A stretch of DNA of 32,000 nucleotides from Candidatus Heimdallarchaeota archaeon B3_Heim (GTDB lineage Archaea; Asgardarchaeota; Heimdallarchaeia; Hodarchaeales; Hodarchaeaceae). Made by a program: the position numbers and the translations under genes. This document shows, in pieces, positions 2,923-28,308 of this stretch. Positions within the stretch are counted from its first letter, which is position 1. Each line of letters opens with the position of its first letter. The DNA is taken from contig NJBF01000001.1 in assembly GCA_003144275.1 (NCBI GenBank), forward strand, positions 90,001-122,000. Direction: 5' to 3'. The notes beneath the pieces were generated by a model. The model was given only the letters and a program-made list of their open reading frames with translations. It was not told where the DNA came from and ran no database searches.

Positions 2923-3027
2923 GCTGCTGTGGCTTAGTTGGTAGAGCGACAGACTCGTAAGATTCATAGAAGATCATGATAACTCCGAGATATCTGTTGG
3001 CCGTGGGTTCAAGTCCCACCAGCAGCT
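2923..3027 (+). tRNA. tRNA-Thr(CGU) with a 32-nt intron (2960-2991) at canonical position 37/38; CCA not encoded
   Basis: Acceptor GCTGCTG/CAGCAGC, D arm GCTT/GAGC, anticodon stem ACAGA/TCTGT, anticodon CGT 2956-2958, T arm GTGGG-TTCAAGT-CCCAC. Intron forms a strict BHB: CTCG pairs with CGAG, with bulges TAA and ATA. Confidence 0.96.
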
Positions 3028-28090: not shown

Positions 28091-28308
28091 GTTTGTATCT
28101 CAAGGCGCTTTTTCACCAGGGGATATTGTTTCCGGGTTCGGAATGAGACCGGGTGTGACTCAGGCCCTTTGGCCGAAGAACCTTCAGCTTTCCGATTTTC
28201 CCGTAGGCGCGAGCACAACAGTACAGATCGGAACGGAGCCTGACTTAACTTTCGGCAATATCTCACAGGTTAATTCATCGCAAGATGTCTGTTTGAGAGA
28301 TTACAAAC
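28091..28308 (-). repeat. Two nested inverted-repeat pairs flanking the permuted 5S (precursor processing stems)
   Basis: Inner pair 28256-28262 with 28122-28128 (GATATTG/CAATATC, 7 bp). Outer pair 28293-28308 with 28091-28103 (GTTTGTA-ATC-TCTCAA / TTGAGA-TACAAAC, 13 bp with a 3-nt bulge). Confidence 0.8.
28130..28249 (-). rRNA. rrf: 5S rRNA, circularly permuted gene (3' half 28249-28182, GUU linker 28181-28179, 5' half 28178-28130)
   Basis: Reordered sequence CTTCGGCCAAAGGGCCTGAGTCACACCCGGTCTCATTCCGAACCCGGAA|GTTAAGTCAGGCTCCGTTCCGATCTGTACTGTTGTGCTCGCGCCTACGGGAAAATCGGAAAGCTGAAG (117 nt). It has all archaeal 5S motifs (CACACCCG, CATTCCGAAC, GGAAGTTAAG, GTACTG, CGGGAA) and helices I-V pair. Confidence 0.93.

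Follow-up and report, generated by a model that had tools for sequence, protein, structure and literature searches.

A circularly permuted 5S rRNA gene in the Asgard archaeon B3_Heim, joined end to end in RNA and probably matured through a tRNA-splicing-type BHB motif

Where the 5S rRNA of Candidatus Heimdallarchaeota archaeon B3_Heim is encoded, and how that gene could yield a continuous 5S backbone, are the questions raised by a minus-strand locus in the window analyzed here, a 32,000-nt stretch covering positions 90,001 to 122,000 of contig NJBF01000001.1. Neither the window nor the whole genome (3.95 Mb in 103 contigs, 94% complete) contains a match that reaches the gathering threshold (38 bits) of the 5S model RF00001. 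A permissive Rfam search returned two sub-threshold 5S pieces in swapped order, scoring 20.8 and 16.9 bits, and failure of the colinear model at gathering score is what is expected of a permuted gene. On the basis of the sequence and these Rfam pieces, the minus strand from 28262 to 28122 is a circularly permuted 5S rRNA gene. The 3' part of the molecule comes first (loop B, the 3' strand of helix II, helices V and IV, and the 3' strand of helix I) and is followed, through a GUU cap, by the 5' part (the 5' strand of helix I, loop A, helix II, helix III, and loop C). The features are as follows, with slashes inside sequences marking predicted cuts.

28293 to 28308, minus strand: leader strand of a distal stem (GUUUGUA..UCUCAA), from the minimum-energy fold
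28256 to 28262, minus strand: leader strand of the outer helix (GAUAUUG), pairing perfectly with 28122 to 28128
28252 to 28255, minus strand: leader strand of the central helix (CCGA), forming three Watson-Crick pairs plus A.C against 28132 to 28135
28249 to 28251, minus strand: leader bulge AA/G, with the predicted cut between 28250 and 28249 and G28249 as the first nucleotide kept
28130 to 28249, minus strand: permuted 5S rRNA, 120 nt, identified from two swapped Rfam pieces, covarying helices, and RNA contigs
28172 to 28188, minus strand: helix I as a hairpin (GCUGAAG-GUU-CUUCGGC, cap at 28181 to 28179), from pairing in 20 relatives and from RNA contigs
28132 to 28135, minus strand: trailer strand of the central helix (CCGG), which also supplies the 3' strand of 5S helix III in its lower part
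28129 to 28131, minus strand: trailer bulge AA/A, with the predicted cut between 28130 and 28129 and A28130 as the last nucleotide kept
28122 to 28128, minus strand: trailer strand of the outer helix (CAAUAUC), pairing with leader GAUAUUG and covarying with it
28091 to 28103, minus strand: trailer strand of the distal stem (UUGAGAUACAAAC), from the minimum-energy fold

An earlier note on this DNA had described the leader and trailer layout, the 7-bp outer helix, the central helix of three Watson-Crick pairs plus C.A, and a bulge on each strand, and all of these were recovered in the minus-strand sequence. The note had further proposed that joining ...CCCGGAA to GUUAAG... would excise a unit of 120 nt and regenerate the 5S consensus, which also proved correct: the unit from 28130 to 28249 has that length, and its joined ends read CGAACCCGGAAGUUAAG, in agreement with the Rfam consensus for 5S, CGaACuCggAAguUAAG, in the alignment. 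UUAAG lies directly 3' of the leader bulge and CCGAAC directly 5' of the trailer CCGG, and the conserved 5S loop motifs CCGAAC, GUUAAG, GUACUG, and GGGAA are all found in the unit. When rotated, the unit aligns end to end with the canonical 5S of four other Asgard families and is identical to it at 76 to 81 of ~120 positions, whereas in genomic order only 34 to 47 positions are identical to the same genes. This permuted gene is the organism's sole 5S rRNA gene. The distal stem lies ~35 nt beyond the BHB helix and resembles 16S and 23S processing stems; it contains 13 pairs and a 3-nt bulge in the minimum-energy fold of 28335 to 28075. The DNA downstream of the 5S trailer is T rich.

Comparison with 20 relatives showed that the permuted 5S fold together with the outer helix was paired in 95.1% of cells, with 27 pairs changed on both sides. 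The shuffle control was 82.5% paired, with 0 of 500 shuffles matching 95.1%, and sliding of the pairing partners left at most 50% paired. All nine aligned pairs of the outer helix had changed on both sides, its length being 7 perfect bp in B3_Heim and 5 to 15 bp in relatives, and the helix I hairpin was 100% paired, with three pairs changed on both sides. The covariation of the outer helix and the two controls point to structure beyond chance. The unconstrained minimum-energy fold of the 261-nt precursor lacked the BHB and had a z-score of only -1.29. In constrained folds of B3_Heim, the BHB conformer (-42.9) and the conformer with native helix III (-43.8) were separated by no more than ~1 kcal/mol, as were those of an Odin gene (-62.5 and -62.4, respectively); the same CCGG is contested between the central helix and the lower part of native helix III.

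The distribution of the gene was determined with a covariance model of the permuted form (R1), built on alignment A2 and applied after a BLAST search. Full-length R1 matches were present in 79 of the 83 genomes of the class, among them all 14 high-quality genomes as well as single-contig genomes, and in all seven families. That the locus might be a pseudogene or result from faulty assembly, for which its going unrecognized by Rfam at gathering score could be cited, is barely credible against this recurrence in single-contig genomes, the covariation of every helix, the expression described below, and the lack of any other 5S in the genome. RF00001 scored above its cutoff in four genomes of the class, in two cases on bacterial-looking 5S genes on short contigs, in one as a mis-hit on the permuted gene, and in one on an intron-bearing gene, so that the class-wide permuted pattern is not weakened. 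Two canonical 5S genes of 80 bits (L061, G023:C798; L062, G005:C310), located on contigs of 2.3 to 2.6 kb and followed by a hairpin and a T run, look bacterial and are probably bin contamination.

Across the phylum, represented by 151 evenly drawn genomes, strong full-length R1 matches (45 to 115 bits) occurred in 14 further families. Canonical 5S genes above the Rfam cutoff were found in complementary families (26 of 26 genomes in f11, 17 of 19 in f17, and 3 of 5 in f20, together with f15, f27, and f28), and the weak R1 matches in these families sit on their canonical genes. This complementarity indicates that the permutation is not present in every Asgard lineage. Judged by these model searches, most other Asgard families sampled have the permuted layout, and families without a permuted gene carry a canonical 5S. 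A permutation-specific DNA pattern, searched in one genome per prokaryote species, gave 24 matches, of which 22 carried Asgard titles (Hodarchaeota, Heimdallarchaeota, Odinarchaeia, Baldrarchaeota, Asgardarchaeum, Hermodarchaeota, and Promethearchaeota) and two were titled "Thermoproteota archaeon" and "uncultured archaeon." The "Thermoproteota archaeon" record JAPDJY010000015.1 (L122) contains a full-length Asgard-type permuted 5S scoring 104.5 bits; either the record is mislabelled or the trait extends beyond Asgard archaea.

Several genomes contained more than one permuted 5S or an enlarged form. Tandem copies occur in L022 (G023:C510:3668-3964), where each of the two copies has its own leader-trailer helix and the helix sequences differ; two matches per genome were found in G024, G028, G038, and G042 to G044 and four in G067 and G069. 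Insertions of ~29 nt in the loop C/helix III region of the permuted 5S were seen in L057 (G001:C30:19062-19235), L029 (G016), and L097 (G099), and further matches of 163 to 175 nt occur in the family of G099 (in G109, G182, G197, G089, and G168). The ~29-nt insertion consists of a duplicated CAUUCCG and an AUGAAG...CUUCAU hairpin and could be an expansion or a second intron.

A single 5S gene in canonical order (L063/L135, G048:C117:8277-8414, minus strand), adjoining an intron-bearing tRNA, has a 23-nt insert placed exactly where the other genes are permuted. This insert forms an inside-out version of the same BHB (CACG-GA/A-CAGUCU-AUCG-AGACUG-CGUG-AA/A-GUUAAA), and a pattern search of 400 Asgard genomes found this one case of a canonical-order 5S with an intron at that site. 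It is possible that the insert is a 5S rRNA intron and represents an evolutionary intermediate, and the contig may be foreign to its bin.

The cut rule for the 5S flanks was calibrated on the organism's own tRNA-Thr intron, which the earlier note had taken as a sign that the splicing machinery is in use.

2923 to 3027, plus strand: tRNA-Thr(CGU), with a 32-nt intron at 2960 to 2991 in a strict BHB (Rfam tRNA, 61.7 bits)

ARAGORN missed this intron-bearing tRNA, which Rfam finds with a 34-nt gap in the anticodon loop. The intron is real, as judged from that Rfam score and from its BHB fold, ACAGA-CUCG-UA/A ... CGAG-AU/A-UCUGU, in which ACAGA and UCUGU form the exon helices and CUCG and CGAG the central helix. 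The 5S flanks share the handedness and the cut rule of the tRNA-Thr intron, and cutting after the second bulge nucleotide predicts the junction of 28130 with 28249 that is seen, with a 2-nt ambiguity, in the RNA contigs described below.

The copy in B3_Heim has a relaxed form of the motif, as the earlier note had recognized. Its central helix consists of C-G, C-G, and G-C pairs and an A.C at the inner end, a mismatch that recurs in several lineages. The trailer bulge AAA has 3 nt, and the leader bulge has 3 nt only with G28249 unpaired, a possible pairing of GUU with AAC shrinking it to 2 nt. No conserved leader-trailer pairing that would form an inner flanking helix was found inside the central helix among the genes compared, and on the inner side just a 2-bp helix of the 5S body (GU with AC) could stack. 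The sequence offers no convincing inner helix in B3_Heim, and its motif is classed here as a putative relaxed (hBH-like) BHB, most relatives having what appear to be stricter forms.

Cut geometry was assessed in 58 distinct genes by enumerating 81 cut-position pairs per gene and choosing by central and outer pairs, with the 5S consensus ignored. With cuts after the second bulge nucleotide, the best-pairing geometry placed helix III and GUUAAG exactly 2 nt apart in 54 of the 58 genes, and just 8 of the 81 geometries are able to give this canonical spacing. Two registers were found. Register 1, N4-AA/G with N4'-AA/A, occurs in 38 genes, B3_Heim included; register 2, in which each strand is displaced by 1 nt (for example, CGUG-AA/A with CACG-GA/A), occurs in 16 genes and gives the same product. 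The carriers of register 2 are Odin, Baldr, Asgardarchaeum, and part of the Heimdall class, and they have clean AAA and GAA bulges. The central helix was paired at all four positions in 45 of the 58 genes and at three of four in 13, and its compensatory forms include CUGG with CCAG, CAGG with CCUG, CGUG with CACG, and CCGA with UCGG. Counted column by column, the central helix is 82.5% paired with one double change, which understates the pairing because some lineages are shifted by 1 nt; the per-gene enumeration was used instead. In family f5 (L100 in G072 and L099 in G034), the best BHB geometry leaves 3 nt (AUA or AUU type) rather than 2 before GUUAAG, which reflects either an extra 5S nucleotide or a different cut rule or alignment.

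These data bear on whether the motif is a processing signal at all. The ends could instead be produced by other nucleases trimming the leader-trailer stem and be closed by general RtcB joining, the resemblance to a BHB being a by-product of the palindromic CCGG and of an origin by tandem duplication. The leader CCGAAA/G does resemble a degenerate version of CCGGAA in the trailer, CCGG can pair with itself, and circular 5S isoforms that do not involve a BHB are found in other archaea (PMC12558985). The isoforms of Halobacterium and Sulfolobus (PMC12558985; Danan et al. 2012, as cited there) have covalently joined 5S ends, as in Asgard archaea, and since circular isoforms of ordinary 5S are known, RtcB-type joining of 5S ends alone is no proof of a dedicated pathway. 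Those isoforms, however, have variable joints, derive from colinear genes, and are read as degradation linked, whereas the Asgard RNA has one precise joint that is needed for the 5S backbone. In register 2, moreover, the leader 4-mer complements the trailer 4-mer and does not copy it (CGUG against CACG), which argues against a mere duplication remnant. Changes such as CUGG with CCAG and CAGG with CCUG are compensatory. The outer helix varies completely, yet the bulges retain their size and stay 4 bp apart, and the cut rule restores the 5S spacing in 54 of the 58 genes. An origin of the ends in unrelated trimming is thus quite improbable, and cleavage at a BHB remains the preferred reading.

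The genome encodes candidate enzymes for such cleavage and joining. Two EndA paralogues of 182 and 215 amino acids, 25% identical and each with PF01974 and PF02778, are encoded on the same contig as the 5S (G000:C57:43111-43659 and 84383-85030; L126 and L127), and RtcB is also encoded (559.8 bits). In BLASTP alignment, the 215-amino-acid protein has no His opposite the His in the DHAPF stretch of the 182-amino-acid protein. The beta-like EndA gene lies ~5 kb upstream of the window start. The pair has the two-gene layout of the (alpha-beta)2 type, and alpha/beta EndA is described in PMC5829648 as one of two types able to cut noncanonical motifs. By this gene content, EndA would be the maker of the 5S cuts and RtcB the joiner. 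The earlier note's reading of the flanks as a BHB thus gained support from a motif kept across the phylum, from two registers that both restore the 5S consensus, and from the presence of genes for alpha/beta EndA and RtcB.

Evidence for the joint itself came from metatranscriptomes. Thirteen runs contained words sampled from the 191-nt locus, half of them at most, and RNA contigs of four runs (X1, X2, X5, and X7, from four studies of wetland and sediment) were compared with the locus. Contig cover was confined to 28130 to 28249 in all four runs, and leader or trailer sequence was found in no contig of these runs; an apparent extension to 28255 arises from the resemblance of the leader CCGAAA to CCGGAA of the ring. 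In X7, a 150-letter contig runs from 28192 to 28130, jumps to 28249, and continues to 28163, going back 120 positions. The shorter side of this joint has 63 nt, and 28163 to 28192 is covered twice, giving a 30-nt overlap round the 120-nt unit. Contigs of X1, X2, and X5 have loose ends, which read GUUAAGUCAGG... beyond 28130 and ...UCUCAUUCCGAAC upstream of G28249; as written, the loose ends before 28130 are the reverse complement of GUUAAGUCAGGCUCCGUUCUGAU and those behind 28255 that of UCUCAUUCCGAAC, which gives the same joint. The RNA across CCCGGAA/GUUAAG that the earlier note had predicted was therefore found, as the joint itself (X7) or as matching loose ends (X1, X2, and X5), in all four runs with the flanks absent, and contigs also run through the GAAG-GUU-CUUC cap, where it had suggested looking as well. 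Three RNA records have 150 letters, that is, 120 plus 30, one of them being the contig that wraps the unit, and we infer that this length is a closed cycle of 31-letter words written out. The joint position is ambiguous by 2 nt, which leaves the exact cut sites as predictions. Assembled contigs, on which this evidence is based, are blind to ends, abundance, and single-molecule topology and lose rare forms, and may thus have missed precursors and re-opened molecules.

The joint cannot be traced to a colinear copy of the gene. A 19-mer across it has no match in the genome, not even when two mismatches are allowed, and this 5S in canonical order was found at 0 of 80 metagenome loci sharing a conserved 23-mer, the best being 86% identical over 79 nt. 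A joint-spanning 23-mer was rejected as a specific probe, its 94 metagenome matches being ordinary 5S of other organisms, and serves as a negative control only. The share of sampled words, up to 0.75 in DNA runs versus up to 0.50 in RNA runs, was too weak to use. With the joint present and the flanks absent in RNA contigs, the predicted ligation of the 5S gene ends does happen in RNA. This bears on a further reading, in which a linear 5S, still permuted and with its loop B ends free and unligated, is the mature form. Brown-algal mitochondria offer a precedent from an organelle, where the permutation affects the gene as well as its product (Valach et al. 2014, PMC4267664), and there, as in Asgard archaea, helix I is replaced by a closed hairpin. 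The brown-algal product, however, is linear, with ends at the three-way junction and no BHB or ligation, whereas the Asgard break lies in loop B and is re-joined. A linear Asgard product is contradicted by the joint evidence in all four RNA runs and by the lack of contigs that end at the predicted termini with flanks, and we consider it very improbable.

Taken together, a gene that is permuted and conserved, a motif that covaries, the enzyme genes, and the joined RNA free of flanks suggest the following route, which as a whole is considered likely. The natural 5S ends, at helix I, are closed by the GUU cap, and both the start and the end of the sole 5S gene fall within loop B, between helix III and GUUAAG. 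Once transcribed, the leader would pair with the trailer to form a relaxed BHB comprising the 7-bp outer helix, the four-position central helix, and two bulges. An EndA of the alpha/beta type, tolerant of relaxed motifs, would cut after the second nucleotide of each bulge, and RtcB would ligate A28130, through its 2',3'-cyclic phosphate, to the 5'-OH of G28249. This would give a 120-nt RNA with normal 5S sequence over the joint; most likely the RNA is a covalent ring and acts as the 5S.

The helix I cap bears on the question of a final or an intermediate ring. A UNCG tetraloop forms the cap in 25 of the 58 distinct genes, from many families (UUCG in 15, UGCG in 8, and UACG in 2), and has 3 nt in the genus of B3_Heim; neither a second BHB nor a conserved cut motif was found there. 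An extra-stable cap under selection would agree with a retained hairpin, and, taken with the contigs that span the cap, this favors the ring as the final form rather than an intermediate, a reading to which we lean with some reserve. Alternatively, the ring could be only an intermediate that is re-opened in or near the cap to give an ordinary linear 5S. Linearization of circular pre-rRNAs is the textbook archaeal route, the 23S of P. furiosus being opened elsewhere, at helix 98 (PMC7758197, PMC12918454), and contigs look the same for a ring and for a mixture of linear forms. A cap with no second BHB or cut motif suggests instead a stabilized hairpin that is kept, and contigs cross the cap while leader and trailer words remain unassembled; re-opening accordingly seems unlikely. 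For the functional ribosomal 5S of most Asgard archaea, the Hod/Heimdall relatives of eukaryotes included, to be an obligatorily circular, covalent ring made by tRNA splicing is a proposal that we favor by a slight degree.

Several known systems share parts of this route. A full-text literature search returned no description of a permuted archaeal 5S, the phrase "permuted 5S" occurring only in the organelle paper (PMC4267664). Permuted tRNA genes of Cyanidioschyzon merolae (Soma et al. 2007, as cited in PMC4267664) resemble the Asgard 5S in having swapped halves, a BHB at the flank junction, and a circular intermediate. Permuted tRNA circles are re-opened at their acceptor ends by RNase P and tRNase Z, whereas the 5S helix I cap shows no equivalent signal. 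Circularly permuted tRNA genes are also present in Thermofilum. The closest precedent is the SRP RNA of Thermoproteus, which is permuted and circular; in Thermoproteus tenax it, too, is a universal structured RNA with a permuted gene that had been "missing" from annotations (Plagens et al. 2015, eLife, PMC4731332). Compared with that RNA, the Asgard 5S is a ribosomal RNA, extends over most of a phylum rather than a few species, and is known from genes and RNA contigs. Circular precursors of the 16S and 23S rRNAs likewise involve a BHB in a leader-trailer stem and circularization by EndA and RtcB, and circular 23S in mature ribosomes and a permuted 23S in Pyrococcus and Thermococcus have been reported (PMC7758197, PMC12918454, bioRxiv 10.64898/2026.03.23.713588). 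The 16S and 23S genes are colinear and any permutation occurs at the RNA level, whereas the Asgard 5S is permuted in the gene itself.

The permuted gene explains why gene prediction failed to yield a 5S even in closed Heimdallarchaeum genomes (PMC8813620), and why Asgard metagenome-assembled genomes can fail the 5S criterion of genome-quality standards. Archaeal circularization is currently said to involve 16S and 23S "but not 5S rRNAs" (PMC12918454), a statement that the joined Asgard 5S contradicts. The presence of a permuted or a canonical 5S among the families sampled is a discrete character that could be tried as a phylogenetic marker within Asgard archaea, and the predicted ring is directly testable in cultured Asgard strains and in ribosome structures. 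Cut-and-join maturation of permuted genes, so far a matter of tRNA and SRP RNA, would now extend to a ribosomal RNA over most of a phylum, and EndA and RtcB, the presumed enzymes, would thereby be essential to ribosome biogenesis in the lineages with a permuted 5S.
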